A stretch of DNA of 64,000 bases from an uncultured Alphaproteobacteria bacterium (lineage in GTDB: Bacteria > Pseudomonadota > Alphaproteobacteria > RF32 > CAG-239), in contig CALYAY010000010.1 of the NCBI GenBank assembly GCA_944393695.1, positions 994-64,993 on the forward strand. Direction: 5' to 3'. The notes under the pieces are model-generated. The model was given only the letters and a program-made list of their open reading frames with translations. It was not told where the DNA came from and did not search any database. The translations under genes and the position numbers were made by a program. Below, piece by piece: positions 42,887 to 59,453 of this stretch; position 1 is the first letter of the stretch; each line of letters starts with the position of its first letter.

Positions 42887-43861
42887 ATGACAAATAATGC
42901 AACCGACACCTCCTCAATCATCAAACAATTCATGAAAATCACCGGCGCTTCCGAAGTTTTTCTCTACGGTGGGGCTGCCATCGACCGCTATCTGGATCAC
43001 AATGCCAAAATCATGGACTATGACATTGCCATTTCCGACACCGCCGAATACACCCGGGCCATCAACAAACTGCGCCTGCTGGGCTTCGACGTGGCCAAAC
43101 CGCGCATCGCCCACAATTTGTCCACCGTTGCCAAACACAAAGACTACGGCACTTTTGACCTGGCCTGCATGAACATTGAACAAAACGGCATTTACAATCT
43201 CGAAAAATTTTATATTCAGTATTCCGCAAAATACCCCGAAGGACGCGCCGTCGACCGTTATCATACGGTACGGGCCATGCGCGAAGGCCGGCTCGAAATC
43301 GTCAACAATCCCGACAAGGAACCGGCTTATCATCTGCTGCGCCGTTTCTCCGTACTGGCCGGAAAATACAATCTCTCACTGGCGCGCAACGGCATCAACC
43401 GGCCGACAATCGACACCATTGAACGCCGCCTGACCGAAACCCCTTTAAGCAAAGAAAACGAACACGACCGCGTCCGCTGCCTGTCGCGTTTTCTGGGAGC
43501 AGTATTGCGGGCCAAAGACCATTCCGCTTACCTGGAAGGCATGGGACAGACAGGCTTAATGCGTTTTGCTTTTCCTCAAATCCAGGAACTTCTGACCGAC
43601 AAAAAATTCACCCGCAGCAAAGAAGTGCAAAACTCCAAAACAAAATTTGATTTGGTCAGCCTGATGTTGGATAATACACACAATCAAGACGGATTAATTG
43701 ACGAGATAGCCCTCTTGTCCAAACGGGAACCCGACCGCGAGGAGCCGCGTCTGATAAAAAAAATCAACACCGTCATCAACGCCCCGGCATCCAAAACGCG
43801 GATTGAACGTCTGCTAAATCCGGTATTTGCGCACATTATTAACAAAGGAAAAACTATCTGA
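42887..43861 (+). CDS. Pol-beta-superfamily nucleotidyltransferase (CCA-adding / poly(A) polymerase head-domain-like)
   Basis: 'VFLYGGAAIDRYLDHNAKIMDYDIAIS' resembles the GG..RD...(D.D) head motif of the tRNA nucleotidyltransferase family. 324 aa. Confidence 0.45.
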   Translation: MTNNATDTSSIIKQFMKITGASEVFLYGGAAIDRYLDHNAKIMDYDIAISDTAEYTRAINKLRLLGFDVAKPRIAHNLSTVAKHKDYGTFDLACMNIEQNGIYNLEKFYIQYSAKYPEGRAVDRYHTVRAMREGRLEIVNNPDKEPAYHLLRRFSVLAGKYNLSLARNGINRPTIDTIERRLTETPLSKENEHDRVRCLSRFLGAVLRAKDHSAYLEGMGQTGLMRFAFPQIQELLTDKKFTRSKEVQNSKTKFDLVSLMLDNTHNQDGLIDEIALLSKREPDREEPRLIKKINTVINAPASKTRIERLLNPVFAHIINKGKTI

Positions 43862-44625
43862 TGAAAATCACCGTCTTAGGCTCCGGCTCGGCTTATGGAA
43901 CACCAATGATACTCAACCGCTGGGACGGCTCCGATGCCTCCGATTCGCGCAACCGGCGCCTGCGGGCTTCCCTTTTTCTCGAAGACGAAGGCAAAAACCT
44001 GTTGGTCGACGCCGGCCCTGATCTGCGTGAACAGATTAACCGTGAAAATATCAATGATTTCAACGCCGTTTTCATCACCCACGCGCATTATGACCACATC
44101 GGCGGCATTCCCGAGTTGCCCCGCGCCTGCAAACTTCTGGGACACAAAATCGATATTTATGCCTCAGCCGCAACCCTGGAAGAAATCCGCCAATGCTATG
44201 CCTACCTCTTTTCCGGCAGCGGCGAACCCGACAGCGGCAGCCTGAACTGGCACGTCTTAACCGACGAACCGGCTGACATCGGCGGACTGAAAATGGATGT
44301 TTTCTTCGTCCCCCACCACCACATGCAAAGCTGCGGCTTCCGCTACAAAAATTTTGCCTACGTTACCGACTGGCAGGATTTGCCCGCCGCCGCGGCCAAA
44401 AAAATCGATGGAACCGAACTCCTGCTGGCCGAATGCAATAACGGCATGCAACCATCGGCAAACGGACACAGCAGCTGGCCGGAAATTGCTCCCCGGCTCA
44501 CCGGCTTAAACCTGCAACAGATTGTCTTAACCCACCTGGCTGCCAGAGTCGATTATCAGACTTTTCAAAATCAGCTGCCCCCAAATGTCCGGGTTGCCTA
44601 CGACCGCATGGTTATAAATATTTAA
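43861..44625 (+). CDS. Metallo-beta-lactamase-fold hydrolase (PhnP / RNase Z-like subgroup)
   Basis: 'FITHAHYDHIGG' HxHxDH motif. Start overlaps the upstream stop (ATGA). Confidence 0.75.
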   Translation: MKITVLGSGSAYGTPMILNRWDGSDASDSRNRRLRASLFLEDEGKNLLVDAGPDLREQINRENINDFNAVFITHAHYDHIGGIPELPRACKLLGHKIDIYASAATLEEIRQCYAYLFSGSGEPDSGSLNWHVLTDEPADIGGLKMDVFFVPHHHMQSCGFRYKNFAYVTDWQDLPAAAAKKIDGTELLLAECNNGMQPSANGHSSWPEIAPRLTGLNLQQIVLTHLAARVDYQTFQNQLPPNVRVAYDRMVINI

Positions 44626-44711
44626 CTTTCCTCATAATCAAATAGACAAAAAAGCATTGACGGCTTTCTTCAAAAAATATATAATCATTCCGTCAATAAA
44701 TTATTATATAC

Positions 44712-45062
44712 ATGAAAAATTTAATTATTCTCACAAACGGTTGGAATTCACCCCTGCCGCTGATTTTGATTGGTATTGCAATCATTGTTGTTATTTGCCT
44801 GACAAAACATATTCTCCGTGTACGGCAAAAAAAGCATCGGCAGCAGGCTCTGAAAAACTACGGCATTGCCCGACGTAATTTTTACTTCAATGAAAGGCTG
44901 AAAATCATGCAACATTACCGACAGCGCATCCTGGCCGGCACAATGCCTGTTGACGCCGCCTTAAAAGACGTCCGCATTCTCTTGGAAGCCAACGGCAACG
45001 ACGAATGGACCTGGAGAGAGGAATATCAAAAATTTGCCGAAGAAATGGAGACTTACCGTTAA
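44712..45062 (+). CDS. Small membrane protein, hypothetical
   Basis: 116 aa with one TM helix. Followed by an AAAGAAAGAGACT...AGTCTCTTTCTTT inverted-repeat terminator (45061-45109). Confidence 0.3.
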   Translation: MKNLIILTNGWNSPLPLILIGIAIIVVICLTKHILRVRQKKHRQQALKNYGIARRNFYFNERLKIMQHYRQRILAGTMPVDAALKDVRILLEANGNDEWTWREEYQKFAEEMETYR

Positions 45063-45168
45063 AAAAAGAAAGAGACTTTTTTCCAAAAGAAAATAGTCTC
45101 TTTCTTTTGACCGTAATGCAGATAGATTATTTAATCTGACAAAACAAAAAAAGAGAAAGTATAAACGC

Positions 45169-45714
45169 CTACCACGGGCCGCGGATAACTTTCCCCTTGG
45201 ATTTTGTGGCCTGGGAATCATCTGAAAAATCATCATCAAATTCATTTTCCGAATATCCCTGCTGAACATATGTTTGATCATATTCAGGCAATCTTGCGGG
45301 ATGATAATATTCCAGCTGTCCGAAAACATTATAACGCCAATTTCCGCATTCCTGATCATCAAGCAAAACCCGGCCATCACTCAGCGTATCGATTTTATTC
45401 GGATCAACGCCATAAGACATCGCAACATACAAACGCAATTCCTGTATCGTATTTGCCGTCAGTTCTATATGTTCCTGCCTCTCATACGCCTCTGCCTCTC
45501 GTCGTAACCTCTCAATATCCTCATAACTCAGTTCCGAACGCTTTAAATACTGCGTTCCCGGACCATAAGGCCGATTGTTTTTGGCGGAATTATTGTTCCG
45601 TACGGAAATGCTTTGAGGATTTTCCACATTATCGTCACGCTTTTGCGCCCCGTTCTTTTTTCCCAACAAACCGGCTATCACCACGCAGACCAGAATAAAA
45701 GCAACTATTTCCAT
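45169..45714 (-). CDS. Hypothetical protein with an N-terminal signal anchor
   Basis: ORF 45169..45738. Likely start MEIVAFILVCVVIAG at 45714. Acidic C-terminus. Confidence 0.35.
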   Translation of the reverse strand: MEIVAFILVCVVIAGLLGKKNGAQKRDDNVENPQSISVRNNNSAKNNRPYGPGTQYLKRSELSYEDIERLRREAEAYERQEHIELTANTIQELRLYVAMSYGVDPNKIDTLSDGRVLLDDQECGNWRYNVFGQLEYYHPARLPEYDQTYVQQGYSENEFDDDFSDDSQATKSKGKVIRGPW

Positions 45715-46109
45715 ATTTTTTCTTTTCACAAAAAACATTCATCTAAAACAACAGCTAAACTCAGGATACTTTGTTTATCAGCAAAAACAAGATATTTAAA
45801 AGAAAAATCCAAATTTTGGTATAGATTCAATTAAAATTTATATATATAAATAATCAGCAACAAGGAAGAATCTTTAATATTATTTAATTTCAATCATTGC
45901 CCCGAATTTTTACAGCTAAAACAAAAAGGGCTAGAAAATAATCTAACCCTTTGTAAATACTTGGTTGTGCTTTCAAGCCAAAGTGAGGAAAAATATAAGA
46001 AATAACCCCCTGATTTTGCATAATATTAAAAAATATCAAACCTTTACCTCAAATCCGCCACCTCAGACCCTTAAAATCTTAAGACATGGTCTGTGTTTCC
46101 ATATACAAT

Positions 46110-46976
46110 TTATTTTTCAGCAACTTGCAGGTTCTTAGTAATATCTATAAAGAAATCCTTACTCCACATGTCTAATTTATGGGGTTCGACAATAAATGGC
46201 AAAACATCTTGTTTGGCTTGCTCATAATTAATCATCTCAAATCGCTCTTTAAGCATTTCTTGAAGTTTTCCTAATGTCAACGTTTCACCGCTTTTCCAAG
46301 CACCGGAATCTTCCAGCCTTGCCTGCAAATGCGGCAGATTAACCTTTGCCTGCCGTGAGAGATAAAATACATAATCGTATAAATCCCGCCCTTTGACCCG
46401 ATTCCTCCATGAACGGCAAATAACTGCATGAATTTTTCCGGCAAATAAAGATGGCATGTCATAAAGCTTAACCTGATACGGCGACGGCAGCAGGCGGTAT
46501 TTATTTTCAAATTGCGCAAAAGCCGGCGGATTGGTATCAACTTCAAATTTTATTTTTATAACTTCATCAGGATTGATGCCAATATTCTGGATATCATAGA
46601 TATTTAAAATATGCTCTTTGGTATTTCCTTTCAAAAAGGCCGATTTTATAGCTGAATCAACCGTTTTTTGCTTTTCTTCAATCGAAAATTTCAATCCCAG
46701 CGCCGCCAATTCGCTTTCCACACCGGAAAAATAGCGATTAAACTGAAAATCCGGATTAGGCATGACCAATGAAAAATCCAGATCTTCGGAAAACCGGTCA
46801 AGCCCGTAAAAAATACGCAACGCCGTACCGCCGTAAAAAGCCACGTGCTTAAAAAATCCGGCCCGAGACAAACCGCACAAAGCCACTTCTTGCACGACCT
46901 CTTTCAGCGCATTTTTCTTTTCTTCAGTCGTATTTGTTTTGTAATTACCGAGCATCTGCTCCAAAACAGTCTGCAT
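46110..46976 (-). CDS. abiEii: AbiEii/AbiGii-family nucleotidyltransferase toxin (DUF1814), type IV TA system
   Basis: 'HVAFYGGTALRIFYGLDRFSEDLDFS' is the hallmark NTase motif of DUF1814. 288 aa. Its start overlaps the upstream AbiEi stop. Confidence 0.8.
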   Translation of the reverse strand: MQTVLEQMLGNYKTNTTEEKKNALKEVVQEVALCGLSRAGFFKHVAFYGGTALRIFYGLDRFSEDLDFSLVMPNPDFQFNRYFSGVESELAALGLKFSIEEKQKTVDSAIKSAFLKGNTKEHILNIYDIQNIGINPDEVIKIKFEVDTNPPAFAQFENKYRLLPSPYQVKLYDMPSLFAGKIHAVICRSWRNRVKGRDLYDYVFYLSRQAKVNLPHLQARLEDSGAWKSGETLTLGKLQEMLKERFEMINYEQAKQDVLPFIVEPHKLDMWSKDFFIDITKNLQVAEK

Positions 46977-47611
46977 TATTTATTTCTCCTGATTAACTTG
47001 CCTAAAAGTTTGAGATTACTTGCATGATATAACGGAGCCAACTCATTTAAGCTATTCATATTGAGCCTCCAAAATTCCTGCTCATCAATTCGCAAATCAT
47101 CAAATAAAAGAGCATGTAATTCGCTCAAATTTTTAGCCGGCGGCAAAGAATAAAGCTTATCGCACAAAGCTTTTTCAGGAGTAGCAATTTGATAAGAATA
47201 GCCGTTCTCTTCATGCAGCAAAATTCCCAACGGGTAAACTTCAAGCGGAATATCCCTATATGTAAAAATTCCAAAATGATTTTGATACTGCTTTGCTTTT
47301 CTTTTATTGAAAGTTGCCGAAGTATAAGTCCGATAAACCGCCTCGGGAATGAGCGAATACACGGCCAATGCATAATCAAAAGATAAATATGATGGCCCGA
47401 AAATTCTGCCGGCCAGATATTTTCCAGACGTATCTGCATCAGTTTCATAAAGTCCGCGAGCAACCTGTACAAGCCGTCCATCTCTTACTTCCCGCCGGAT
47501 CTTAGCTTTTATATTGCTATAATCATGAAACTTGAGTGTTAAATCATCAAACGAATATATCATATTTCCTCCAGATAGTTCCATAATACAGCACCTTTGG
47601 GAGGAAATCAA
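46976..47611 (-). CDS. abiEi: AbiEi-family antitoxin / transcriptional regulator (type IV TA system)
   Basis: About 200-aa protein directly upstream of and overlapping abiEii. 'RREVRDGRLVQVARGLYE' wHTH-like segment. The true start is probably an internal Met at 47584 or 47563. Confidence 0.65.
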   Translation of the reverse strand: MISSQRCCIMELSGGNMIYSFDDLTLKFHDYSNIKAKIRREVRDGRLVQVARGLYETDADTSGKYLAGRIFGPSYLSFDYALAVYSLIPEAVYRTYTSATFNKRKAKQYQNHFGIFTYRDIPLEVYPLGILLHEENGYSYQIATPEKALCDKLYSLPPAKNLSELHALLFDDLRIDEQEFWRLNMNSLNELAPLYHASNLKLLGKLIRRNK

Positions 47612-47665
47612 GGACTTTAAATAAAGTCTCCATCTTCCAACATATCCGTCATTCTTTTTCGGGCC

Positions 47666-48403
47666 TTAGAATACTTTCTTTAAGCATAATTTATTAATTG
47701 GACATTCAGCACAATGTTTTTGCCGGGCCATACAAAATTGGCTTCCCACATACCATAGAAAAGGATCAAGCATCCCCGGAAATTCTGGATAAATACTTCG
47801 AGCCCTGTAAATAATCATTTCATTTGACGCTTTTTCATCAATCAAACCTAAATTTATCATTATTTTTTTAACTTGAGAATCTGGAGAAATATCAACACTT
47901 TCCATATGTTTAAGCTTTACTTTCATCATTCTTGTTAGAATATTAACAGCCATTGTAGCAATTTTTATGCCACATCCTTTAAATGCCAAAAAGTTATAAA
48001 TAACGTCGGCACAATTTTCAGAACCTTTCCAGATACGTGATGCATCTCCTTCATACACTTCAACAATTTTTTTCACAGCTTCACAAAAAACATCAGACAT
48101 ATTTTTCTTAAAACGATGTTTAGTATGCTGCTTAAATATTGAAGAAATTGTCCCTGAAGAACATTTATTCCACTCGTTAATATCTGCTGTTCCAAGATGA
48201 TTTTCTACAATAAATGGAATACTCCAAGCATCATTTGCCCGGATTTGCCGATCCATTAAGCAACCAATTACAAAAAAGTGAGGATACTTCTTGTATTTTT
48301 TTAACTCTTCAAGAGGTAAACCTAAAGTCTGCTCTTTCTCATAATAATCCTTAGCTAATTTAACCAATGATTTTGTTACTTTATGCTCTTGAATCTTATT
48401 CAT
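47666..48403 (-). CDS. Endonuclease III-like HhH-GPD DNA glycosylase with a [4Fe-4S] cluster loop. Stand-alone and AT-rich.
   Basis: HhH 'FKGCGIKIATMAVNIL' (the Lys aligns with Nth K120), a downstream 'VDIS' Asp, and a C-terminal 'C-x6-C-x2-C-x5-C' (CMARQKHCAECPINKLC) Fe-S cluster loop. Confidence 0.55.
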   Translation of the reverse strand: MNKIQEHKVTKSLVKLAKDYYEKEQTLGLPLEELKKYKKYPHFFVIGCLMDRQIRANDAWSIPFIVENHLGTADINEWNKCSSGTISSIFKQHTKHRFKKNMSDVFCEAVKKIVEVYEGDASRIWKGSENCADVIYNFLAFKGCGIKIATMAVNILTRMMKVKLKHMESVDISPDSQVKKIMINLGLIDEKASNEMIIYRARSIYPEFPGMLDPFLWYVGSQFCMARQKHCAECPINKLCLKKVF

Positions 48404-48469
48404 AATCTTTCCTTAACTAAAATAAAAAACATTCACATTCTATTAGTTTATTTGCGAAATCTTCCATCT

Positions 48470-49870
48470 CTACCTCTCTTTCAAACTCTCATTCAGATAC
48501 TTCATCACCGGAGAGAGGAGATATTCGATGACGCGGCGTTTGCCGGTTTTGATTTCGGCGGTCACGCTCATACCGGGTTTGAGTTGAATAATCTGCCCGT
48601 CCGCTTTGATTTTGTTATCCAAGAGCGTCAGCCGGGCATTAAACACCAAACCGAGTTTCTCGTCCTGTATCGCATCGCCCGAGATATTGCGGACTTTGCC
48701 TTTGATTGTGCCGTATTTGGTGAACGGGAAGCTGTCGATTTTGATTTCCACATCCTGCTCCGGTCGTACAAAGCCGATATCTTTGTTCAAAATCTGCACT
48801 TCCGCCTCAAGTTTATAATCTTCCGGCACCAGGTTCATAATCGGCTTGGCGGTTTCCACCACGCCGCCTTTGGTGTGATAAACCAGCTGCTGCACATAGC
48901 CAGACAGCGGCGCCTTGACCACCGTCCGCTTTAACGCCTCCTGATATTTAATCAGCTCCTGCTGATAAGATTCCAGCTGTTCGCGGTTTTCGGTCAATTC
49001 CTGCATCAGGTCCTTGTCAAACTCGGCCAAATACTGACGCTTTTGCTTTTTCAGCGATTCAATATTTGCTTCGGTCTCCGCCATTTTCTTGACTTGTACG
49101 TTGCGTTGTTCCTGCAGGTTGGTCAGTTCTTCTTCCTGCTCCAGAAAGGTCAGCCGCGCCAGAAGCTTCTTATCCACCAAAATCCGCTTTTTCTCAATCC
49201 GCTCCTCAACGCTCGGCAGCAGTTTCTCAATCCGGTTCAGCTCGGCCTGAATGGTGTCTTTTTCTTTCTCGGCCTTTACGATTTGCCCATCCAGAACTTC
49301 AATCTGGGCTTTTTTCTCAGTCATCTGGCTTTTAAGCAGATCCTTGTGCATTTTAATCAGATATTCGTCAATCTCCGGATTATAACTGAAGTTCGCTTCC
49401 GGATTATCGGTCAGCAGGGCCTTCAGACGGGCAACGGCAATTTCCAGAGCCTCAATCTCGTTTTCCACCCGGCTGATATTGGCCAGCACTTCGGTCTGAT
49501 TAAATTTAATCAAATCCTGCCCTTCTTTCACATATTGCCCCTCTTGCACGTAGATTTCCTCAATCTCGCTGTCGGTCAGGGTCTGGATGGTCTTGATGTT
49601 TGAAGCCGGCATCAGCTTTCCGGCCGAAGTGGCGATAATATCGATTTTGCCCAGGATTGACCACAAAATCAGCACCGTAAACATCAGCATAATAACGTAG
49701 GTCAGCAGCCGCGCGGCATGAGACGGTGGCATCTCGGTTACTTCCAAGACCGCCGGCAGAAACTCTTTCTCATGCTCGTTCATGCCTTTGATTTTGCAGT
49801 CTTTGGCTGCTTTCTCCTGCAAAAGCGCCAGCTTGGCAATATCCCAATATCTTTTAAGTTGTTCCCACAT
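48470..49870 (-). CDS. hlyD: Type I secretion membrane-fusion protein (HlyD family)
   Basis: N-terminal TM, a long coiled coil, and a C-terminal beta-barrel. 466 aa, immediately downstream of hlyB. Confidence 0.85.
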   Translation of the reverse strand: MWEQLKRYWDIAKLALLQEKAAKDCKIKGMNEHEKEFLPAVLEVTEMPPSHAARLLTYVIMLMFTVLILWSILGKIDIIATSAGKLMPASNIKTIQTLTDSEIEEIYVQEGQYVKEGQDLIKFNQTEVLANISRVENEIEALEIAVARLKALLTDNPEANFSYNPEIDEYLIKMHKDLLKSQMTEKKAQIEVLDGQIVKAEKEKDTIQAELNRIEKLLPSVEERIEKKRILVDKKLLARLTFLEQEEELTNLQEQRNVQVKKMAETEANIESLKKQKRQYLAEFDKDLMQELTENREQLESYQQELIKYQEALKRTVVKAPLSGYVQQLVYHTKGGVVETAKPIMNLVPEDYKLEAEVQILNKDIGFVRPEQDVEIKIDSFPFTKYGTIKGKVRNISGDAIQDEKLGLVFNARLTLLDNKIKADGQIIQLKPGMSVTAEIKTGKRRVIEYLLSPVMKYLNESLKER

Positions 49871-49876
49871 TGTCCG

Positions 49877-52036
49877 TCACTCCGCCGCCACTTCATTCGG
49901 CACAATCGGCGCGGTCTGGCTGTTCCACAGATAAGCGTAACGTCCGCCGCGTTTTAACAATTCGTCATGCGTACCGGTTTCGGTAATCTCACCTTTTTCA
50001 ATGGTAATAATCTGGTCGCAGTCCCGCACGGTCGACAGCCGGTGCGCAATCATAAACACCGTCCGCCCCTTGCAGATGGAGGCCATATTCTGCTGAATAA
50101 TCCGTTCGGATTCATAATCAAGCGCCGAGGTTGCCTCGTCAAAAATCAAAATCCGTGGATTGTTAACCAGTGCCCGCGCAATGGCTATTCTTTGCCGCTG
50201 TCCGCCGGATAAAGAGGCGCCGCGTTCTTCAATAATCGTGTCATATCCGTCCGGCAGTTCGGTAATAAACTCATGCGCACCGGCCAGCTTGGCGGCGGCA
50301 ATAATCCTGTCCATCGAAATTGCCGGATTAGTCAGGGCGATATTTTCGCGCACGCTCTTATTAAATAAGTAATTTTCTTGCAACACCACCCCGATTTGAC
50401 GCCGGAGCCATGCCGTATCGACGGTGGAAATATCAATCCCGTCAATCAGCACCTTGCCGCTTTCGGGAATATACAGCCGCTGGATCAGCTTGGTCACGGT
50501 CGATTTGCCCGAGCCGCTCGGCCCGACAAAACCGATTTTCTGCCCGGCTTTGACTTTGAAGTTCATCTTTTTCAAAATCTCCGGACCGTTCGGCACATAA
50601 CGGAACGTAATGTCCTTAAATTCCACGTCGCCTTTAATCTCCGGCATCGAACCTTTGGACAGGGTTTCGGTATTTTCAGCCGGATTGTTGAGAATATCGG
50701 AAAGCTTTTCAATTGAGATTTTCGCCTGCTGGAAATTCTGCCACAACTGCGCCAGGCGTAAAATCGGCTGCGTTACCCGCCCGGACAACATGTTAAAGGC
50801 AATCAGCTGCCCGACCGACAGCTCGCCCTTCATCACCAAACTGGCTCCGATCCATAACGTCAGCGCCATGGTGATTTTTTGCACCAACTGCACGAGCTGT
50901 CCGGCAATATTGTTGATATGCGATGCTCTGAAAGAAGACCCGACATAAGCCGCCAACTGCTGCTCCCACCGCCGCTGCATCTGCGGTTCAACGGCCAAAG
51001 ACTTAACCGTTTCCACACCCGAGACCGCCTCCACCAGAAAGCATTGGTTCTCCGCTCCGCGCTGAAACCGCTCGTCTATCCGCGCCCGCAAAATCGGCGT
51101 AAAGAACAAAGACAGCAACACATAAAACGGAATGGAGAGCAAAACCAGCAGCGTCAGAGTTTTGGAATAAAAGAACATCACCGTAAAAAAGATAATCGTA
51201 AAAAAGAAGTCAATAATCAGGGTTAAGGTCGAACCGGTCAAAAAGTTGCGGATGCTTTCCAGCTCATGCACCCGCGCCACCGTATCACCGACCCGCCGCA
51301 CGCCGAAATAAGACAGCGGCAGCCGGATAAGGTGCTTGAATAAACTTGCGCCCAACTCTACATCAACGCGGGTGGTGGTGTGCGAGAAGGTATAAGTGCG
51401 CAGCCCGCCGAGCAGAGTTTCAAAAATACCGATGCAGATTAACGCTACCATCAACACGTCAAGGCTCGACAACCCGCGGTTAACCAGCACCTTGTCAATC
51501 ACCACCTGAAACAACAACGGCGATACCAGCGCAAACAACTGTAAAAAGAACGAGGCCAGAATAACCTCGCCGAACAGCCTGCGATATTTAACCACCGCCG
51601 GAATAAACCACGAAATGTCAAACTTGCGGTTTTTGCCGTTGATAAACTCACGGCAGGTCATCATCAAGAGCCTGCCGTTCCATCTGTCCATAAATTCTTC
51701 TTTGCTCAAAACCTCGGGGTGGTTGCCTTTGGCGGGATCTTGAATCAAAACTTTGTCCTCAGCAACTTTGCCGAGAATAAAATAAGCCCCGTCTTTGCTT
51801 TGGGCGATTGCCGGCAGCGCCGTCTTGTCCAGCCGTTCCCACTTGGTCTCGACAAAGCGGGCTTTGAATGAAAATTCTTTGGCCAGCTGCAACAATTCAT
51901 ATTCTTCAAAATGCGAATTCTGCCGGTCATATTTATGCTTGATTTGGTCAATCGACACTGGCTTCTCAAAATAATTGGCCATAATCGCAAAACAGGCTAG
52001 CCCGGTGTCAATGTCTTGAAAAGAAGTATTATCCAT
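49877..52036 (-). CDS. hlyB: Type I secretion ABC transporter (HlyB family), with an N-terminal C39-like domain that lacks the catalytic Cys
   Basis: Strong similarity to E. coli HlyB, from memory ('FDISWFIPAVVKYRRLF', 'FLQLFALVSPLLFQVVIDKVLV', 'SYFGVRRVGDTVARVHELESIRNFLTG'). Walker A 'GPSGSGKST', signature 'LSGGQRQRIAIARAL'. Confidence 0.9.
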   Translation of the reverse strand: MDNTSFQDIDTGLACFAIMANYFEKPVSIDQIKHKYDRQNSHFEEYELLQLAKEFSFKARFVETKWERLDKTALPAIAQSKDGAYFILGKVAEDKVLIQDPAKGNHPEVLSKEEFMDRWNGRLLMMTCREFINGKNRKFDISWFIPAVVKYRRLFGEVILASFFLQLFALVSPLLFQVVIDKVLVNRGLSSLDVLMVALICIGIFETLLGGLRTYTFSHTTTRVDVELGASLFKHLIRLPLSYFGVRRVGDTVARVHELESIRNFLTGSTLTLIIDFFFTIIFFTVMFFYSKTLTLLVLLSIPFYVLLSLFFTPILRARIDERFQRGAENQCFLVEAVSGVETVKSLAVEPQMQRRWEQQLAAYVGSSFRASHINNIAGQLVQLVQKITMALTLWIGASLVMKGELSVGQLIAFNMLSGRVTQPILRLAQLWQNFQQAKISIEKLSDILNNPAENTETLSKGSMPEIKGDVEFKDITFRYVPNGPEILKKMNFKVKAGQKIGFVGPSGSGKSTVTKLIQRLYIPESGKVLIDGIDISTVDTAWLRRQIGVVLQENYLFNKSVRENIALTNPAISMDRIIAAAKLAGAHEFITELPDGYDTIIEERGASLSGGQRQRIAIARALVNNPRILIFDEATSALDYESERIIQQNMASICKGRTVFMIAHRLSTVRDCDQIITIEKGEITETGTHDELLKRGGRYAYLWNSQTAPIVPNEVAAE

Positions 52037-52478
52037 GGTTGCTCACAAGTCAGTTGCAAAGCTTTAATGAAAAATATCATAAAGAGAGAAAAGCAAAAAA
52101 TAAAGCAAAAATTTACACTTATTGATAATTAGTTTCCGGCATAAGAATAATCTGAAGTTCTATCCACAGGATCAAAACAAGTATCACTAACGGTTTAAGG
52201 AGAAAACTAACAAAACATTAATAGAACGATAAAAATAAAAAATAATTTCCTTGCATAATTAAAGTTATAGAGTGAAACTTATTACAAAATTACTCTCAGG
52301 GAGTGCAATATGGCGCATAGAAGAGAATCGTGGAATAACGTTTCCCTCACCGGACTACCATCATCTTGCTTGTTTTTAGATGTTTCTCTTAGTGCGCTCC
52401 GGTTAAAATTTCCTTTTTCTCGATTCTTTTTTCTGGTTTTCACCTTTTGTTATCTGCTTTTAAGTTACGCTTTCCAAA

Positions 52479-53483
52479 GTGCTAGTTTGTGGAGTCTTAA
52501 TAATGACGATATCTAATATTTTATTTTTTCTATTCTTACTTCCATTTCTATTTATTTTCAAGTTAGGTGGAACCTATGGTAGCGATGGTCTAGGACAAGC
52601 TTTTTATTTACTCTACTATTACGCTATTGCAATTTGGGGAATAATACTCCTTATTTTACATAAAAATACAAATAAGAAAATAAAATACAATATTTGGGGA
52701 ATAATATTGTTTTTGTTTATTACGTCCCACTATATTACTCTTTGCCGCCATGGGATTAAAGCTTTAGACTATCTATTCCCTCTTATTTTATGGCCTCCAT
52801 TAACAATTCTTTGGATATTAGTAAGAAAATTAAAATTTCGATATTTTTATTTATTATGTTTTGTGGCAGTTCCGATTTTTTTTAGTATAAAAGATTTTAT
52901 AAAAGAACTACAGTTCTCAATGACCTGCGAACAGCAAACACCACCAATACAGTATAACCCGATATATCTGCCAGAAAAATTTTTTCATATGGCCAATGGA
53001 AAGCTTGAGGCTAATATTATTGAAGTTGACGGAAAATATAATGAGAAAAAAGAGTGGATATCATATTTAGATGAACGGTTATATGAAGATTATCATAATC
53101 AAATTCTTGTATACACAAGTTGTTCTGAAATAAGACACATCAAAAATATTTTAAAAAATATTTCTGTAAATAATGTAGTATTATGTCATGACAGATCCAT
53201 AAAAGAAACTTCTTCCGAAGTCCAACAAATTGTTAATACCATAAACCTTGTTAAAGACGGAAACAAAGAACCAATAGTTACAGACATTAGATTGCGTCTT
53301 GCTGCAAAACCCTTTATAGGCAGCTTTCTGGCCAAAAACGGTAAAAAAAACATAACTTTTTGCACTTATTCAGATTATGATCCTCAAAATAACACTCTGT
53401 GGAGAAAGATCAAAACAGATAAATCATATTCAAAATTTATTAAAATTCAAAAAACAACAAAAAACTTGACAGGAGGCCAGTAG
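52479..53483 (+). CDS. Uncharacterised polytopic membrane protein (about 5 N-terminal TM helices plus a ~190-aa soluble C-terminal domain). AT-rich.
   Basis: ORF immediately upstream of the giant RTX gene. The likely start is at 52503 (MTISNILFF). No family recognised. Confidence 0.4.
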   Translation: MLVCGVLIMTISNILFFLFLLPFLFIFKLGGTYGSDGLGQAFYLLYYYAIAIWGIILLILHKNTNKKIKYNIWGIILFLFITSHYITLCRHGIKALDYLFPLILWPPLTILWILVRKLKFRYFYLLCFVAVPIFFSIKDFIKELQFSMTCEQQTPPIQYNPIYLPEKFFHMANGKLEANIIEVDGKYNEKKEWISYLDERLYEDYHNQILVYTSCSEIRHIKNILKNISVNNVVLCHDRSIKETSSEVQQIVNTINLVKDGNKEPIVTDIRLRLAAKPFIGSFLAKNGKKNITFCTYSDYDPQNNTLWRKIKTDKSYSKFIKIQKTTKNLTGGQ

Positions 53484-53549: not shown

Positions 53550-56500
53550 ATGACTACTTTATCCGATTCTTCAACAATCAACATCAGTGATGAGCATAAA
53601 TATGCAATTTTAAGTAAACTGGCATATGAAAATCTTTCTCCAGGAAATATAAACAGTTTAGATAGTGAATTTTCGGAAGTAGAAAAACAATATTTAGAAG
53701 GATATGAAGTATTAGATAAGATATCTTTAAACAATGGCTTTCAAGCTTATTGGTTAAGAGACAAATCTACAAAAGAAATCATTTATACAATTTCAGGGAC
53801 AGACAGTATCTTGGATGGTGGACACCTTGATTTCGGAGATGATATCTCTATCGGAACCTACGGCATGGCAATAGATCAATTTATCTCGGCCTATAATTAT
53901 TATCAGGAGATGACCCATAACAACGGCGATACAATTTATAAAATAGAGAAAAGTTTAAACGCCCCTGAAGATACTGCATATATAGAATCAGAAGAAGGAA
54001 ATTTAACTGTATACTATTTTTTACAAGAAACAACGAACACAAACAGTGCAGGCAATTCATCTTTTGCAAATGCTACATTAACAGGACACTCTCTTGGAGG
54101 ACATTTGGCGGGTTTGTTGTCTAAATTTACAGGGAATCAAGCATATGTTTATAATGCGCCGGGGTATAGTAATTTTTCTGTTGATGGAGCATTCTTGGAT
54201 TTAAGCTTTGTAACAGCAGATGGCGATTCTTCCTACTATTTATCTTATGTAAATGCATTTGCTTCCTTATTTAATAAAGATTTTGGGGATAATAATGTTA
54301 CACACATTCATACAGCAAATGGTTGGGATTGGGTTGCAGGAATAAATGATGATAAATGGTCTAAAAGTGATATTTATACTTTATATACAGGGCTTGACCC
54401 TCGAGATTACCATAGTATCAATGGAATATGCACGGCCTATTACGCTTATGAAACAATTAAAGATATTGCTAATGGAGCGGAAAGTTTTCACAACGATAGC
54501 ACGATAACTTCATTTAATGAAACATTTGAAAACGTTTACAAAGCCTATTGTCTAAATAAGGGAGAAGCCTATCAAGAGCTTGATTATTCAGAATATGCAA
54601 ATATCAATCAGATTATTTCTGACATTAATGAATGGTCAGAGACACAAAAAGCAAATGGAGGAGTAATTAAAGTCGATTCCTTTAACCATTCTACCTCTCT
54701 ACCAATAACTGGAACTGGCGGTGCAGATATATTCTATACCGGTGGCGGCAATGATACCGTAGATGCCGGAGCTGGAAACGATATTGTATATGGAATAGAC
54801 TTGAATGGAGATAATTCAGCCGCGGCATCCTCTACGAAAACTATAGATCTTGGTGCCGGTAATGACAAATATTATGGTTCAAACGCAAAAGACAACATTA
54901 ATTGTGGTACTGGACGAGATTATGTTGATGCAGGCTCAGGAGAAAACTATATCGATTTAGGTGCAGATAACGATAAAGATACCGTCATTATCAACAACAA
55001 CGCTTCTGGCGTAGATACAATTGTTAATTTTACATCTCAAGATGAAATCAACTGTATCGGAGGTTTTAATATCTCTTCGCTACAACAAATCGGAAATGAT
55101 ATGATAATTTATGGAAACAACGGAAACAAAATCGTATTCAAAGATGCCGTTGAAAAAAATTCAATGCCGATGCTAGTACAAAACAATGACACATTATTAT
55201 ACTGGGAAAATGGAAAATACAACGAAATAAAATATAATCCTTATGCTATGGAAAATCCGACAGAAGAACATATTTGTGCATTATTGAGTAAATTGGCATA
55301 CGAAGATTTAACAGTTGGATTTAATTTTGATAACCTGAGTAAAGACAGATTCGCTCCGGCTGAAATAGCCTATATAAAAGAGAATTTTGATGTTATAAAT
55401 GTCAAAAATGATATAGAAACAGGATTTTTCGGATGTTTTTTGAAAAATAAAAAAACAGGAAAAATTTATAATGCCATAAGAGGAATAGATAGTAATTCTC
55501 TTGATGAGAAAGATATCATTGCGGATAACGAAATCAGAAACAAAGGTATGGCAATTGAACAGTTTATTGCTGCTTATAATTATTACATTGAAGTTATGAC
55601 ACCTAGCGGAAGTGTGTCCAACAAAATTGTGTATAGTTCGCAAAAGCCGGAAGGTGAAACAAACTGTGTCGAAGATAAAACAGCAGGAAGATACTATTAT
55701 CTCAGACCTTGGAGCGGAACGTCTACTCTAGGCAATAATACCGAAATTATCATTACAGGGCATTCACTTGGCGGACATTTAGCAGGTTTAGTTGCAAAAT
55801 GTGTTGATAATCAAGCAATTGTTTTTAATGCCCCTGCCTATGGAGCTGTTAAACAACAAAGTAAAATAAATTATATTGCAGATAACGGTTATGTCTATCA
55901 AAATATAAATAGTCACTATCTAGCAATTATAACAAGAATGCTTGAAGGCATCAGTTCAAATTCCAATATACATGCTATATATAGTAATGACTATTCAGAA
56001 TTTGCAGATAATATATATAGTTTATGGTCGATAGAGAAAAGTCTTAATACCATTGCTTCCCAATCAAATCCATTATCTCAAAGCAGTATAAATGCAATAA
56101 GTGACACGTATTATATTTATAACACGATAAAAGGAATAATAAGTGGTCCAGATATTTTTAACAATAAAGAAAATATAACCATTGAAACAGCTTTTGACAA
56201 CGTTTATCAAGCATATTTACTAGCTCATGAAAAAGAAAATATTACAATACCTTACGAAAATTCATCTCAAATTAAGGAGTTTGCAGATGAAATTGCAATA
56301 TGGCGTCAAAAATACTCGGAATATAATATATTAATAGATATAAAGAATCAAGATTCAACAAAATCAGCTTCAATAAGAGCAGAAGATGGAAATAATTTGA
56401 TATTTATTAAGAATGGGAAAAATAGTGTTACCTTAGGAACAGGAAATGATATCGTGTATGCAACCAATATTGATAAAGAAATTGGTACACAAGAAACCGT

Positions 56501-59453
56501 TTCTCCAGATAATCGAGTGTATTTAGGAGCCGGAAACGACATTTTTTATGGCTTCAACGGGAATGATGTCATTGACGGCGGAAACGATAAAGATGCAGAA
56601 ACTGATAAAAATATAATTTATCTAGGAGCCGGAGATGACGACTACAATGGTGGGGATGGAGTTGACATTGTCGATGGTGGTTCTGGAAATACCGGAAACT
56701 TGAATAAAAATATTTATGGTAACCTGGAATATTTTATGACAGATTCTGAAACTAATATAAATGATGTTAAATTAGAGGGAGGTAATGATGTATACATTGG
56801 AGGAAAGGGCTCAGATGAAGTAGATACTACCTGGGGTAATGATATTATTCTAACCGGCAAAGGAGATGATTATATTTACACTGATTTTTTTGATTCGAGA
56901 GATACAGATAAAAAGATTATCTATTTAGGAGAAGGAAGCGACAAATTTAATGGAGGAGCGGGAGATGATATAGTCGATGGAGGTTCTGGAACTAAATATA
57001 TATTTGGTAATGATAACGATCAATATTTTGAAACATTCACCCAAGAAATGTTATTAGATAATGAAAATGATGTAAATACAATTAATCTTGGAGCAGGAAA
57101 TAATATATACATAGGAGGTACGGGAATAGACAACTTAATTTCCAGAAATAATGCAGGAGAAAAAAATCATATCTGGTTGGGGGCTGGAAATGATACTTAT
57201 GACGGAGGAAACGGAGACGATATAGTTGATGGAGGCTCCGGAACAATAGGAGAATTGTCTAATGTTTTGCCTTTTATTAACATTCCTGAAGATATATTGA
57301 AGGACAGCCCAGAAGATACAAATACAATTAATTTAGGTCATGGAAATAATATTTATTATGGCGGGGCTGGAATAGATGTTGTGACCAGTGGTAATGGAAA
57401 TGATATCATTCAAGGAGGAAAAGGTAATGATATCTTGAACGGAGGTTCTGGTAACGATACTTATATTTATAACAGCGGAGATGGTTTTGATGAAATAACT
57501 GATACCTATGGAACAAATGAAATTGTTTTGGGTGAAGGGGTGCAGAGAGAGAATATAACGGCTGAATCTATAGCATCAAACAAAATCAAATTATATTTTG
57601 ATAACAATTTACAAGAAGGCATTAGTTTTGAAGGAAACCTTTCTTCAACAAATTTAGTGTTTGCAGATAATACATCTGTAAAAATTTCAGATGCAGGTTT
57701 CATTTTCAAACAACAAGATACAAATGAGAATATAACAGGAACCAAAGGAAATGATATTTTCTATGGAAATGGCGGAGATGATATAATTAACGGAGATGCA
57801 GGAGATGATATTTATATTTGGAATTTGGGAGATGGACTAGATACAATTAAAGATAAAAAAGGAAACAATATAATAAGGTTTGGAAAAGGAATAAAACTTT
57901 CAGATTTATCTTTTTCTCAAAATAATAGAGACTTGACGATAAATGTAAAAGGAAATGCTTCTGAAGGAATAACAATAAAGGAATATTTTATTGATCCAAT
58001 TAGCTCTTTAGACACAATCATACTAGAAGATGAACAACAAACATACCAAATTAATAATCTTAATATTGAAATAGATCACCCTCAAACAACGGAAGATACT
58101 CCTATTTATAGCACAAATGGGAATAATATTCTACATAATGCTCCAGGAAATAATGTAGTTTATTTAAATAATGGTAGTAACACTTTTCTTTGGAATATTG
58201 GTGATGGTATGGATATCCTCAGATTTGACGATTGCAATACTGGTGGAAAATGCAGTATTAAATTTGGTCCAGGAATTAGTGCTGAAGATTTATATTTCTC
58301 AACTATTGGAAAAAATGGAGTTGACTGGGATTATACAGATTTAAAGATATCTGTAAAAGGAAATGAAAATCAAGGAATCATTTTAGATGAATTTTTTGAT
58401 AAAAAAGTAATTAATCGTTTAGAAAAAATAATTTTTGATAATGGTGACGAACTGGCTTTAACCGATATAAAAATACATACGGCTTCTTTTAATGGTTCAG
58501 ATTATAATGACATTATCCATTATACTGATGGGATATACGCTAGTCATGGTTATGAGGGGAACGATGAAATGCACGGAGGGGATTCTGAAGACCAACTGGA
58601 TGGAGGAAATGGTGATGATTATTTATATGGATATAAATCCAATGACTTTTTAGTGGGAGGGGCCGGAGATGATACATATATCTGGAATCTAGGAGATGGA
58701 ATGGATACAATTTCTGATACTGATGATAATATAGGTGATACAATTTCCTTTGGTTCGGGAATTACATTCGAAGATTTAAAATTTATTGGAGATTTTGACG
58801 GATTAAGAATAATTATCAAAAATGACGAAACGCAAGGAATATTTATTCGTAATCAAATGCAATATGGAGATGTCAGAAGTTTAGATGAAAAAGCAGGAAT
58901 TGAATACCTGAAATTTAATGATGGAAGTACTGTTAATATAAAAGAAATAGGATTAAATCTTTATACTACAGAAGGAAGAAGCATTGATGGTTCTCCTTTT
59001 GATGATATAATTAATGGAGCCGAAAATGCAACATTAAAAGGCGGAGCCGGAAATGATACATATACCTACAATTTGGGTATGGGAGATTGTTCAATTGATG
59101 ATACTTCTGGTGAGAATGATAAAATTAAATTTGGAGAAGGAATAAGTTTAGATCAATTAAGTTATCGCACATATAGAGACAATCTAAATATCTCAATTGG
59201 TGATGGTAACAATAATATCACAATAAATAATTACTTTAGCACTAAAGAAAATTACCAGGGAAAAATTGAAACTTTAGAATTTGCTGATGGTTCTCAAATA
59301 AGTACCGATGCTGCTTTACAGCTGATTCAGGCGATGAACTCTTTTGGAGCCGACACGTCTTCAACAATGGATGCATTGTCCAATCCGACAGAAAATGTCA
59401 GCGATATGTGTAATCTCGCTGCCGGCTCGGATTTGATAAAGAAAGCAATCTAG
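53550..59453 (+). CDS. Giant (1967 aa) T1SS-type secreted protein with two tandem lipase-family-I.3-like alpha/beta-hydrolase domains, each followed by RTX GGxGxD nonapeptide beta-roll repeats, and a long C-terminal array of repeated beta-roll modules
   Basis: AAGGAG RBS. Domain 1 'YAILSKLAYENL...IYTISGTD...LTGHSLGGHLAGLLSKF'. Domain 2 at about aa 575 'CALLSKLAYEDL...NAIRGID...ITGHSLGGHLAGLVAKC'. More than 30 'GGAGNDxxxG' repeats. Recurrent 'GxGIxxxDLxFxxxxxDLxI' modules. No Cys-rich regions. Acidic C-terminus. Confidence 0.85.
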   Translation: MTTLSDSSTINISDEHKYAILSKLAYENLSPGNINSLDSEFSEVEKQYLEGYEVLDKISLNNGFQAYWLRDKSTKEIIYTISGTDSILDGGHLDFGDDISIGTYGMAIDQFISAYNYYQEMTHNNGDTIYKIEKSLNAPEDTAYIESEEGNLTVYYFLQETTNTNSAGNSSFANATLTGHSLGGHLAGLLSKFTGNQAYVYNAPGYSNFSVDGAFLDLSFVTADGDSSYYLSYVNAFASLFNKDFGDNNVTHIHTANGWDWVAGINDDKWSKSDIYTLYTGLDPRDYHSINGICTAYYAYETIKDIANGAESFHNDSTITSFNETFENVYKAYCLNKGEAYQELDYSEYANINQIISDINEWSETQKANGGVIKVDSFNHSTSLPITGTGGADIFYTGGGNDTVDAGAGNDIVYGIDLNGDNSAAASSTKTIDLGAGNDKYYGSNAKDNINCGTGRDYVDAGSGENYIDLGADNDKDTVIINNNASGVDTIVNFTSQDEINCIGGFNISSLQQIGNDMIIYGNNGNKIVFKDAVEKNSMPMLVQNNDTLLYWENGKYNEIKYNPYAMENPTEEHICALLSKLAYEDLTVGFNFDNLSKDRFAPAEIAYIKENFDVINVKNDIETGFFGCFLKNKKTGKIYNAIRGIDSNSLDEKDIIADNEIRNKGMAIEQFIAAYNYYIEVMTPSGSVSNKIVYSSQKPEGETNCVEDKTAGRYYYLRPWSGTSTLGNNTEIIITGHSLGGHLAGLVAKCVDNQAIVFNAPAYGAVKQQSKINYIADNGYVYQNINSHYLAIITRMLEGISSNSNIHAIYSNDYSEFADNIYSLWSIEKSLNTIASQSNPLSQSSINAISDTYYIYNTIKGIISGPDIFNNKENITIETAFDNVYQAYLLAHEKENITIPYENSSQIKEFADEIAIWRQKYSEYNILIDIKNQDSTKSASIRAEDGNNLIFIKNGKNSVTLGTGNDIVYATNIDKEIGTQETVSPDNRVYLGAGNDIFYGFNGNDVIDGGNDKDAETDKNIIYLGAGDDDYNGGDGVDIVDGGSGNTGNLNKNIYGNLEYFMTDSETNINDVKLEGGNDVYIGGKGSDEVDTTWGNDIILTGKGDDYIYTDFFDSRDTDKKIIYLGEGSDKFNGGAGDDIVDGGSGTKYIFGNDNDQYFETFTQEMLLDNENDVNTINLGAGNNIYIGGTGIDNLISRNNAGEKNHIWLGAGNDTYDGGNGDDIVDGGSGTIGELSNVLPFINIPEDILKDSPEDTNTINLGHGNNIYYGGAGIDVVTSGNGNDIIQGGKGNDILNGGSGNDTYIYNSGDGFDEITDTYGTNEIVLGEGVQRENITAESIASNKIKLYFDNNLQEGISFEGNLSSTNLVFADNTSVKISDAGFIFKQQDTNENITGTKGNDIFYGNGGDDIINGDAGDDIYIWNLGDGLDTIKDKKGNNIIRFGKGIKLSDLSFSQNNRDLTINVKGNASEGITIKEYFIDPISSLDTIILEDEQQTYQINNLNIEIDHPQTTEDTPIYSTNGNNILHNAPGNNVVYLNNGSNTFLWNIGDGMDILRFDDCNTGGKCSIKFGPGISAEDLYFSTIGKNGVDWDYTDLKISVKGNENQGIILDEFFDKKVINRLEKIIFDNGDELALTDIKIHTASFNGSDYNDIIHYTDGIYASHGYEGNDEMHGGDSEDQLDGGNGDDYLYGYKSNDFLVGGAGDDTYIWNLGDGMDTISDTDDNIGDTISFGSGITFEDLKFIGDFDGLRIIIKNDETQGIFIRNQMQYGDVRSLDEKAGIEYLKFNDGSTVNIKEIGLNLYTTEGRSIDGSPFDDIINGAENATLKGGAGNDTYTYNLGMGDCSIDDTSGENDKIKFGEGISLDQLSYRTYRDNLNISIGDGNNNITINNYFSTKENYQGKIETLEFADGSQISTDAALQLIQAMNSFGADTSSTMDALSNPTENVSDMCNLAAGSDLIKKAI

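Follow-up and report, generated by a model that had tools for sequence, protein, structure and literature searches.

An EndoIII-like glycosylase and an AbiE pair as apparently separate cassettes beside hlyBD in an uncultured alphaproteobacterium: a candidate single-gene defence enzyme

Defence by base excision is recent, with Brig1 dating from 2024 and Dag from a preprint of 2025, and its known repertoire is small. Dag1, Dag2 and 17 further integron families are stand-alone glycosylases from the HhH (helix-hairpin-helix) superfamily that protect against 7-deazaguanine phages (bioRxiv 10.1101/2025.10.29.685425). Dag1 is bifunctional and has an essential lysine, K118. About 45% of the Dag homologues, which lie in AT-rich DNA, are found within 20 kb of mobile genetic element (MGE) or defence genes, compared with 3.1% of housekeeping glycosylases; an Fe-S cluster is nowhere mentioned for these enzymes (bioRxiv 10.1101/2025.10.29.685425). 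The Brig enzymes, of the uracil-DNA-glycosylase (UDG) type, excise modified pyrimidines (PMC11078745, PMC13160076). END nucleases combine a phospholipase D (PLD) nuclease with an inactivated EndoIII domain that senses hypermodified DNA (PMC12191111). The present subject is a gene for a 245-aa EndoIII-like protein and the adjacent AbiE type IV toxin-antitoxin (TA) pair, which lie next to the secretion genes hlyBD in a 64,000-nucleotide stretch (the window) of contig CALYAY010000010.1, assembly GCA_944393695.1, from an uncultured gut alphaproteobacterium.

An earlier note on this DNA had assigned both to a defence islet and suggested that together they could form a composite anti-phage module. 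Every item it described is present, in place or a few bases off. Judged from strain and locus comparisons, however, the region downstream of hlyBD is rather likely a hypervariable accessory-gene slot with two unrelated, independently exchanged cassettes. The glycosylase itself is most likely a single-gene 'restriction glycosylase' that, in the way of the Dag and Brig enzymes, would attack foreign DNA with modified bases. AbiE offers little new; the interest lies in the neighbouring Fe-S glycosylase family, compact, well conserved and uncharacterised, with about 400 sequence clusters. Its genomic behaviour is that of a defence gene, and a fusion to McrB is known.

Predicted chemistry, spread and role of the glycosylase

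The 245-aa protein has no match in Pfam (PF00730 included) or PHROGs, and no NCBIfam nth or mutY model recognises it. Its sole NCBIfam match is the HhH-GPD model TIGR03252 over residues 41-165, at 47 bits against a cut-off of 136.5. The AlphaFold2 (AF2) model, with a predicted local distance difference test (pLDDT) score of 91, has an all-helical two-domain HhH-GPD fold. Its structural matches include Qng1/DUF2419 (14.6), NTHL1 (14.5), Mig thymine glycosylase (13.7), ROS1 (12.8) and MutY (12); among the matches listed the significant ones are HhH-GPD or other helical proteins, and none is a UDG fold. The family profile matches EndoIII and MutY in the PDB; the protein itself is just 12-16% identical to solved EndoIII enzymes. 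Relative to EndoIII, it is extended at the N-terminus by about 40 aa of additional helical sequence, and about 10 aa are inserted between the catalytic Lys and Asp.

The 476 homologues are mostly 240-250 aa long. K147, D171 and D175 are invariant in an alignment of 25 of them, as are the four cysteines of a C-X6-C-X2-C-X5-C loop (C224, C231, C234 and C240). Other invariant pocket residues, the family's own, include P41, H42, C48, M50 and D51. An hhalign comparison with an Nth sequence pairs K147 with K120, D175 with D138 and the four cysteines with C187/194/197/203, and a profile/PDB alignment (isPDvHv against iaVDTHV) independently supports the catalytic Asp and the cluster loop. The catalytic Lys is present in 222 of 223 family proteins. 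The HhH Lys, the Asp and the cluster loop shared with Nth thus predict the same bifunctional glycosylase/beta-lyase chemistry, and sequence and fold model together indicate that this is probably an active EndoIII-type glycosylase/lyase. The fold, the HhH Lys and Asp and the predicted [4Fe-4S] loop bear out the earlier description of a stand-alone EndoIII-like Fe-S glycosylase; the protein is neither an nth orthologue (by curated models and as a core gene), nor a TIGR03252 member, nor a Brig-type UDG fold.

Two structural matches bear on the possible target. The high rank of the queuine-binding Qng1 fold gives a weak hint towards a 7-deazapurine, and the match to ROS1 a weak hint towards methylated cytosine; neither counts as evidence. 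The spacing from K147 to D213/W217 (66 and 70 residues) equals that from K118 to D184/W188 in Dag1, a coincidence treated as numerology.

The family is thinly spread. In 1.84 billion representative proteins a profile search finds 412 clusters at E<=1e-30, rising to 1,813 when the threshold is E<=1e-3, and 163 stretches encode a relative in a one-genome-per-species collection of 185,579 species. The carriers are mostly uncultured anaerobes from gut-, rumen- and digester-type metagenomes. The bacteria among them belong to the Bacteroidota, Bacillota, Fibrobacterota, Spirochaetota, Lentisphaerota, Elusimicrobiota, Desulfobacterota, Planctomycetota and Proteobacteria, and the archaea comprise Methanosphaera, a Pacearchaeota archaeon and one unclassified archaeal metagenome-assembled genome (MAG). 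There are no Vibrionaceae among the top 80 carrier genomes. The family was not found in 50,697 phage or 72,556 plasmid records; 2.9 million viral contigs (IMG/VR) hold one match, and BFVD a weak one only. No canonical nth or mutY lies within the 64-kb window. The rarity and strain variability of the family argue against a housekeeping role. Most of the full-text literature searches found no published description of it.

One member, P0083 (L114 6659-13187; 243 member sequences, Bacteroidota-like), has 359 aa with an N-terminal extension of about 110 aa. Around it are a dozen small open reading frames (ORFs) of 64-136 aa, most of them on one strand and separated by short spacers, a layout that resembles a cassette array, and no integrase was seen in 17 kb of L114 around it.

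Genomic context was surveyed in loci from the top 80 carrier genomes. AbiE and defence genes were sought there with seed hidden Markov models (HMMs), so that the counts are lower bounds. Defence genes occur in 15 of the 80 loci and recombinase or ParB-methylase markers in 17; a marker of either kind is found in 28 of 80, and in 26 of 59 when only loci that reach 8 kb are counted (35-44%). Methyltransferases of the HsdM, type IIG or PglX type occur in 8 loci, HsdR in 5, Dcm in 5, serine recombinases in 12 and ParB-methylases in 6. In the locus of P0025/L004 the glycosylase is divergent to a BREX locus (BrxB, a BrxC-sized gene and PglX). P0023 stands among a Type I restriction-modification (R-M) system, AAA_15, HNH+AAA_21 and two AbiE pairs, and P0067 in a run of NERD, helicase, NB-ARC STAND, MazG-like, SLFN-like helicase, Dcm, MutH-like and Cas9 genes. 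In the P0067 lineage (L115 7124-9155, Muribaculaceae-like) the glycosylase lies 20 bp 3' of a restriction-type gene (Mrr_cat + FtsK_gamma) and 90 bp 5' of a 104-aa MazG-like gene, all three on one strand. This may be a lineage-specific three-gene operon. Across the 80 genome loci, neither the Mrr nor the MazG seed gave a match. Homologues thus do recur beside defence genes (BREX, R-M, Mrr and others), as the earlier note had proposed to check, but hardly ever beside AbiE. The family resembles Dag in being a stand-alone HhH glycosylase of AT-rich, strain-variable, defence-island contexts.

Fusions point partly in the same direction. P0140 (923 aa, on two contigs) joins the glycosylase domain to MrcB_N and an AAA_5 GTPase, and McrC (DUF2357 + PDDEXK_7) follows 9 bp on; P0140 and McrC form a McrBC type IV restriction system. 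Its HhH Lys is replaced by Asn, the sole such case among the 223 family proteins, and this loss of the catalytic Lys suggests a base-flipping reader of modified DNA. P0158 combines a helix-turn-helix (HTH) domain, DUF4357 and the glycosylase; DUF4357 also occurs fused to GmrSD and McrB homologues (PMC4619093, PMC11090510). Other fusions carry Sel1 or WG repeats or zinc ribbons and, together with the DUF6884 architectures discussed below, are neutral or lean towards repair.

As a restriction glycosylase the window protein would scan duplex DNA and flip a non-canonical base into its pocket. Lys147 would form a Schiff base with C1', the N-glycosidic bond being cleaved and the base released, and beta-elimination would nick the strand 3' of the abasic site. 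The substrate would be a modified base in foreign (phage) DNA, and dense lesions in a modified phage genome would block its replication. The window glycosylase has no nuclease or NTPase partner and would have to act by its own base excision.

Several observations weigh against a defence function. Over half of the loci show no defence or MGE marker recognisable by the seed-based search. A planned distal control (ORFs 6.5-10 kb off) contains 5-6 Type I methyltransferases among 141 ORFs; this set is itself R-M-rich and unusable as a control, hence the lower-bound counts and no enrichment statistic. PADLOC, which the earlier note had proposed to run on the locus, matches AbiEi and AbiEii but has no model that matches the glycosylase. 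The immediate neighbours span 102 Pfam families, some of them housekeeping (FKBP_C, ACPS), although such heterogeneity without a constant partner fits a single-gene function. The catalytic apparatus is indistinguishable from that of repair EndoIII, and accessory repair fits the chemistry equally well.

The strongest competing explanation is that the protein is an accessory base-excision repair enzyme on mobile DNA. It would mend host or element lesions such as oxidised or alkylated bases, or deaminated methylated bases beside methyltransferases, much as Mig.MthI or Vsr does. The complete EndoIII dyad with its Fe-S loop, the closest structures (repair enzymes) and the housekeeping neighbours at many loci agree with this, and a novel Fe-S HhH-GPD enzyme in Crenarchaea that repairs alkylated DNA is a precedent (PMC11754123). 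Two fusion architectures carry DUF6884, a YaaA-like fold with putative lesion binding (PMC11701544), and likewise point towards repair-like biology. A repair gene of this kind would nevertheless have to be extremely rare, with carriers scattered over the phylogeny, to come and go among strains that are nearly identical and, in the window, to lie 16-18 GC points under the host genes. It would also recur within dense defence islands and have had its domain recruited as the McrB N-terminus of a McrBC operon. Mig-type enzymes, moreover, are without the HhH Lys (Begley & Cunningham 1999, cited in PMC12191111); this family keeps it in 222 of 223 members. Repair is therefore the less expected role, a serious but rather unlikely alternative. 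Context, fusions and precedent make defence rather than repair somewhat likely, and the part of the earlier note that took the glycosylase for a defence gene remains plausible, since the gene is sparse, strain-variable and often beside defence genes; its partnership with AbiE is not supported.

More tentatively, the protein might be the founding member of a [4Fe-4S] EndoIII-type family of restriction glycosylases, unlike either the cluster-less Dag families or the Brig enzymes of the UDG type. If so, the base-excision defence repertoire would gain a family that uses another cofactor and probably recognises another base, and its substrate could be a modification that no known defence glycosylase attacks. 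The family would be the first Fe-S-dependent anti-phage effector of its kind, possibly redox- or oxygen-sensitive and concentrated in anaerobes. Such an enzyme would also be a potential tool for detecting or cutting a specific DNA modification.

Two probably independent cassettes in a variable slot

The clearest view of the locus comes from L118, where the order is hlyB-hlyD-[470-aa orphan]-AbiEi-AbiEii. Over both hlyBD (48459-51379) and AbiE (45961-47618) this contig matches the window at 93% identity. The 840 bp between them are replaced by an unrelated 1.44 kb that encodes the 470-aa ORF. The breakpoints lie at 47618/47619 and 48458/48459 with both flanks homologous, and on the hlyD side homology stops 11 nt past the hlyD stop. 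The AbiE cassette is also found with unrelated upstream DNA and no glycosylase on L119, L120, L121, L124 and L151 (72-93% nucleotide identity). Its homology by blastn (L118-L121, L124, L151) starts at 47611-47622 according to contig. It ends at about 45961-45984 in L118, L119 and L124 and earlier in L120, L121 and L151; the left boundary is shared by L090 (45961) and L001 (46002) as well. At the opposite end of the cassette, GACTTTA-TT-TAAAGTC (47628-47613) spans the border of the glycosylase and AbiE cassettes.

Searches from either side agree with the swap. The glycosylase is found in 0 of 38 AbiEii-seeded metagenome loci, all with the window's AbiE subtype, and AbiE is detectable in 1 of the 80 glycosylase-seeded genome loci (L001), the other 79 being without it. 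Divergence is discordant too. Compared with the window, L090 is 100% identical in the glycosylase, 88-92% in AbiE and 85-96% in hlyD; the corresponding values for L001 are 95-98%, 89-92% (most of AbiE) and 79-91%. GC content likewise differs, at 0.32 for the glycosylase against 0.38-0.40 for AbiE. Glycosylase relatives at 61-77% identity adjoin a GGDEF gene or other orphans; at the nucleotide level their homology to the window reaches no further than the ends of the glycosylase ORF. On these sequence comparisons the two are very probably independent cassettes with sharp boundaries. They would be adjacent since both lodge in the same variable hotspot, not from joint action.

The AbiE pair is almost certainly, from its sequence, a new allele of a known subtype (PDLC02230/PDLC02293). 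AbiEii matches Pfam PF08843 (2.1e-30; 106.9 bits against a cut-off of 22.5) and PADLOC PDLC02293 (3.5e-114), and its translation carries FYGGTAL...SEDLDFSL with the GG and DLD motifs. AbiEi matches PADLOC PDLC02230 (1.4e-60, over 27-209) and stays below threshold for Pfam AbiEi_4 (22.3 bits against 25). The AbiEii ATG overlaps the AbiEi TAA by 1 nt (TAATG) at 46976. Both the type IV TA pair and its start/stop overlap had thus been read correctly. By inference from the AbiE family, AbiEi would repress the operon and neutralise the NTase (nucleotidyltransferase) toxin, and AbiEii would arrest growth once the balance is upset during infection.

The cassette brings its own promoter, of sigma-70 type, since homology begins at the -35 box in all seven aligned contexts. 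The -35 box, a -10-like element, the GGAGG ribosome-binding site (RBS) and the ATG are kept in 7/7, and the DNA upstream of the -35 box is unrelated. A start of AbiEi at TTG 47611 was considered and rejected: homology begins at TTGATT, which makes this TTG the -35 element, and ATG 47563 is preceded by GGAGG, giving an AbiEi of 195 aa. The conserved start GGAGGAAATATG is visible in the junction alignment, and on contigs L091 and L093-L095 the gene callers likewise arrive at 195 aa. A short inverted repeat at 47567-47604 (-), which reads CTCCAGA...TCTGGAG in relatives and CCTCC...GGAGG here, lies on either side of the -10 region and extends into the RBS. An AbiEi operator or an RBS-occluding RNA stem would be possible roles.

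Some facts weigh against so clean a separation. The gene order hlyD-gly-AbiEi-AbiEii is kept on 13/13 metagenome contigs with the exact glycosylase protein. L001, a related MAG at about 90% nucleotide identity, shares the block hlyB-hlyD-gly-AbiE between unrelated flanks, its HlyD and HlyB being 98.6% and 93% identical to those of the window. The promoter scan detected no promoter for the glycosylase gene, which may be read through from hlyBD. In the P0023 lineage, with its Firmicute-like context, an AbiEi-AbiEii-gly order is found, with the glycosylase 43% and AbiE 54-56% identical to the window's, and the two may be loosely associated.

A composite module, in which for instance the glycosylase would attack phage DNA and so set off or reinforce abortive infection by AbiE, has to rest on the conserved order, on the P0023 case and on the adjacency itself, on one strand and with no terminator detected between the genes. 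These points are outweighed by L118, which keeps hlyD and AbiE with a different gene in the glycosylase's place, by the at least five other contexts in which AbiE travels with its own promoter and no glycosylase, by the counts of 0/38 and 1/80 and by the discordant divergence and GC. The P0023-lineage strain variants L100 and L105 keep the glycosylase without an adjacent AbiE pair, and two adjacencies in about 90 lineages come, on a rough estimate of our own, close to chance for two defence-island residents. The P0023 case is therefore read as two frequent island residents meeting twice rather than as a functional pairing. The composite module of the earlier note appears largely refuted by the cassette-swap variants and is now very improbable. 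That the glycosylase should be a functional part of the hlyBD/RTX secretion operon, as a co-regulated accessory or regulator, is scarcely credible: its ORF begins 66 bp past hlyD on the same strand with no terminator or promoter detected between, and hlyB, hlyD, glycosylase and AbiE are collinear as one block with L001 and L090, but HlyD adjoins no other family member in the 80 genome loci, L118 has hlyBD without the glycosylase, the GC is 0.32 against 0.49-0.50 and a DNA glycosylase fold has no link to secretion, so that L118 and the family-wide context effectively refute it.

The two cassettes are not the only variable parts of the slot. The filler segment between the AbiE cassette and the hydrolase gene downstream (44632-45960) is replaced in L090 by 1.55 kb of different DNA, the hydrolase gene and the AbiE block staying homologous, and is absent from L001. 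The simplest mechanism of exchange would be homologous recombination in the conserved flanks, an inference. Neither terminal repeats nor recombinase genes that explain the exchanges were found. Terminal direct or inverted repeats and att-like sites, sought around the 6.3-kb block and each cassette, gave short AT-rich chance matches only, and no integrase-type Pfam domain occurs in the 10 ORFs scanned between 42.9 and 53.5 kb, in agreement with the earlier note; the stretch is foreign-looking DNA.

Other occupants of the slot deserve mention. Immediately upstream of the AbiE cassette lie orphans of 470 aa in L118 (2914-4326), 259 aa in L119 (174-953), 268 aa in L124 (3549-4355) and 249 aa in L151 (3563-4312), all without a Pfam or PADLOC match; some defence genes may have gone unrecognised among them. 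Since the upstream DNA is common to L118 and L119, the 259-aa ORF is possibly an incomplete version of the 470-aa one. In L124 a PDC-S72/SoFic-like gene stands two ORFs further upstream. In L001 (12296-14299) a piece of a second AbiEi, 81 aa long and 62% identical over 42 aa, comes after AbiEii. Next is a convergent pair of a 419-aa AAA_15/AAA_21 ATPase (PADLOC PD-T4-4_A 3.6e-27, AriA-like) and a 179-aa orphan, so that the hotspot holds a third system there. The strain comparisons show base by base how a secretion-operon hotspot swaps single-gene cassettes without an integrase, and make it a useful example of defence-hotspot turnover.

Layout of the locus and its neighbours

The features are collected in Table 1. 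On the minus strand the gene order is hlyB, hlyD, glycosylase, AbiEi, AbiEii, hairpin and 189-aa ORF. The hlyBD genes are context, a conserved anchor upstream of the variable slot and outside the defence cassettes.

Table 1. Features of the window downstream of hlyBD (positions in the 64,000-nucleotide stretch)
Feature	Position	Strand	Description
EndoIII-like glycosylase ORF	47666-48403	-	245 aa; HhH-GPD fold with [4Fe-4S] cluster loop, predicted bifunctional glycosylase/AP (apurinic/apyrimidinic) lyase
AbiEi ORF (open frame)	46976-47611	-	
AbiEi antitoxin/transcriptional regulator, revised coding sequence	46976-47563	-	195 aa
AbiEii DUF1814 nucleotidyltransferase toxin	46110-46976	-	288 aa
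AbiE promoter	47583-47611	-	-35 TTGATT 47611-47606, 17-nt spacer, -10 TATTAT 47588-47583
Terminator-like hairpin and T-run	45925-45952	-	Earliest such site 3' of AbiEii
Small orphan ORF	45169-45738	-	189 aa, hydrophobic N-terminus
Small orphan ORF	44712-45062	+	116 aa, hydrophobic N-terminus
Glycosylase cassette, 840-bp swap unit	47619-48458	-	Between hlyD and AbiE promoter
AbiE cassette, 1.66 kb with own promoter	45961-47618	-	Recurs in several unrelated contexts
Strain-variable filler segment	44632-45960	.	Two orphan ORFs and convergent hairpin
hlyD	48470-49870	-	Pfam HlyD_3
hlyB	49877-52036	-	Pfam ABC_membrane, ABC_tran, Peptidase_C39

Measured GC supports the AT-richer islet of the earlier note: it is 0.29-0.44 across 44632-48458 and 0.49-0.54 in the flanking hydrolase gene and hlyBD. 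By gene it is 0.32 for the glycosylase, 0.376 for AbiEi, 0.40 for AbiEii and 0.43-0.44 for the small ORFs, with 0.29 in intergenic DNA. Both small ORFs that the note had listed are present, without a significant match in Pfam, PADLOC, NCBIfam or PHROGs. The terminator said to close the islet is found as a hairpin with a T-run at 45952-45925 (-), AAAGGGTTAG...CTAGCCCTTT, with an 11-pair stem (4 GC pairs) and a 6-nt loop followed by TTGTTTT. It falls, however, with both small ORFs, outside the conserved AbiE cassette and within the strain-variable segment, and terminator-like sites across the region number 4, against 4.0 expected from shuffled sequence. A near-perfect 20-nt inverted repeat at 45064-45108 (95% complementary, 5-nt loop) separates the two convergent small ORFs and is probably a bidirectional terminator.

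Downstream of the slot, a metallo-beta-lactamase (MBL)-fold hydrolase is encoded at 43861-44625 (+). It carries a precomputed Pfam label, Anti-Pycsar_Apyc1, on an identical contig, and its best NCBIfam matches are MBL hydrolases, all under cut-off. The gene overlaps, at its ATG, the stop codon of another ORF of 324 aa (42887-43861, +), for which Pfam, PADLOC, NCBIfam and PHROGs give no match. A 324-aa ORF beside the 77%-identical glycosylase relative on L085 was suspected to be the same as this ORF; the two are unrelated.

On the other side, HlyB bears an N-terminal C39 peptidase-like domain. Divergent from hlyB are a 334-aa AT-rich orphan ORF (52479-53483, +) and then a 1967-aa repeats-in-toxin (RTX) protein (53550-59453, +) with eight HemolysinCabind repeat matches, an HCBP_related domain and a class-3 lipase motif, presumably the substrate of the type I secretion system (T1SS). 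The GC of these two genes is 0.30-0.33, against 0.49-0.50 for hlyBD. A second strain-variable point lies at 52296/52362, between the hlyB upstream region and the 334-aa ORF. Here L090 (4304-6109) carries an extra 1.8 kb at 52296-52362 with two orphan ORFs of 186 and 376 aa, neither with a PADLOC match; the RTX side next to this insertion is 99.9% identical to the window.

Comparison with described systems

The AbiE half of the locus differs in nothing notable from other AbiE type IV TA systems. It is bicistronic with overlapping genes, an AbiEi antitoxin and a DUF1814 NTase with GG...DxD motifs, and the window allele travels as a compact 1.66-kb cassette bounded by the promoter's -35 box.

With EndoIII (Nth) and NTHL1 the glycosylase shares the HhH G-x-G-x-K-x-A motif with the nucleophilic Lys, the catalytic Asp and the C-X6-C-X2-C-X5-C loop. 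Nth, however, is universal and core, whereas the window family is rare, strain-variable and AT-rich. The Mig.MthI glycosylase (1kea) has no Lys at the HhH position and is monofunctional. The window family conserves this Lys, and most of its loci have no Dcm nearby.

END nucleases and McrBC readers use an EndoIII-like domain as a sensor of modified DNA, as would the Lys-less family member P0140 on its McrB-like GTPase. The window protein differs in standing alone, with both catalytic residues kept and no nuclease or NTPase partner. Brig1, Brig2 and Brig3 share the proposed logic, in which a single gene would excise a modified base of the phage and leave abasic sites; Brig1 and Brig2 belong to the UDG superfamily, in contrast to the HhH-GPD fold of the window protein.

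The nearest relatives in behaviour are the Dag enzymes. Like Dag, the window glycosylase is a single-gene, stand-alone HhH enzyme with a Lys/Asp mechanism (predicted here), AT-rich and horizontally moved, and about 45% of Dag homologues near MGE or defence genes compare with a lower bound of 35-44% for the window family. It differs from the Dag families, compared here by description, in being linkable by profile to EndoIII/HhH-GPD and in its predicted Fe-S loop.

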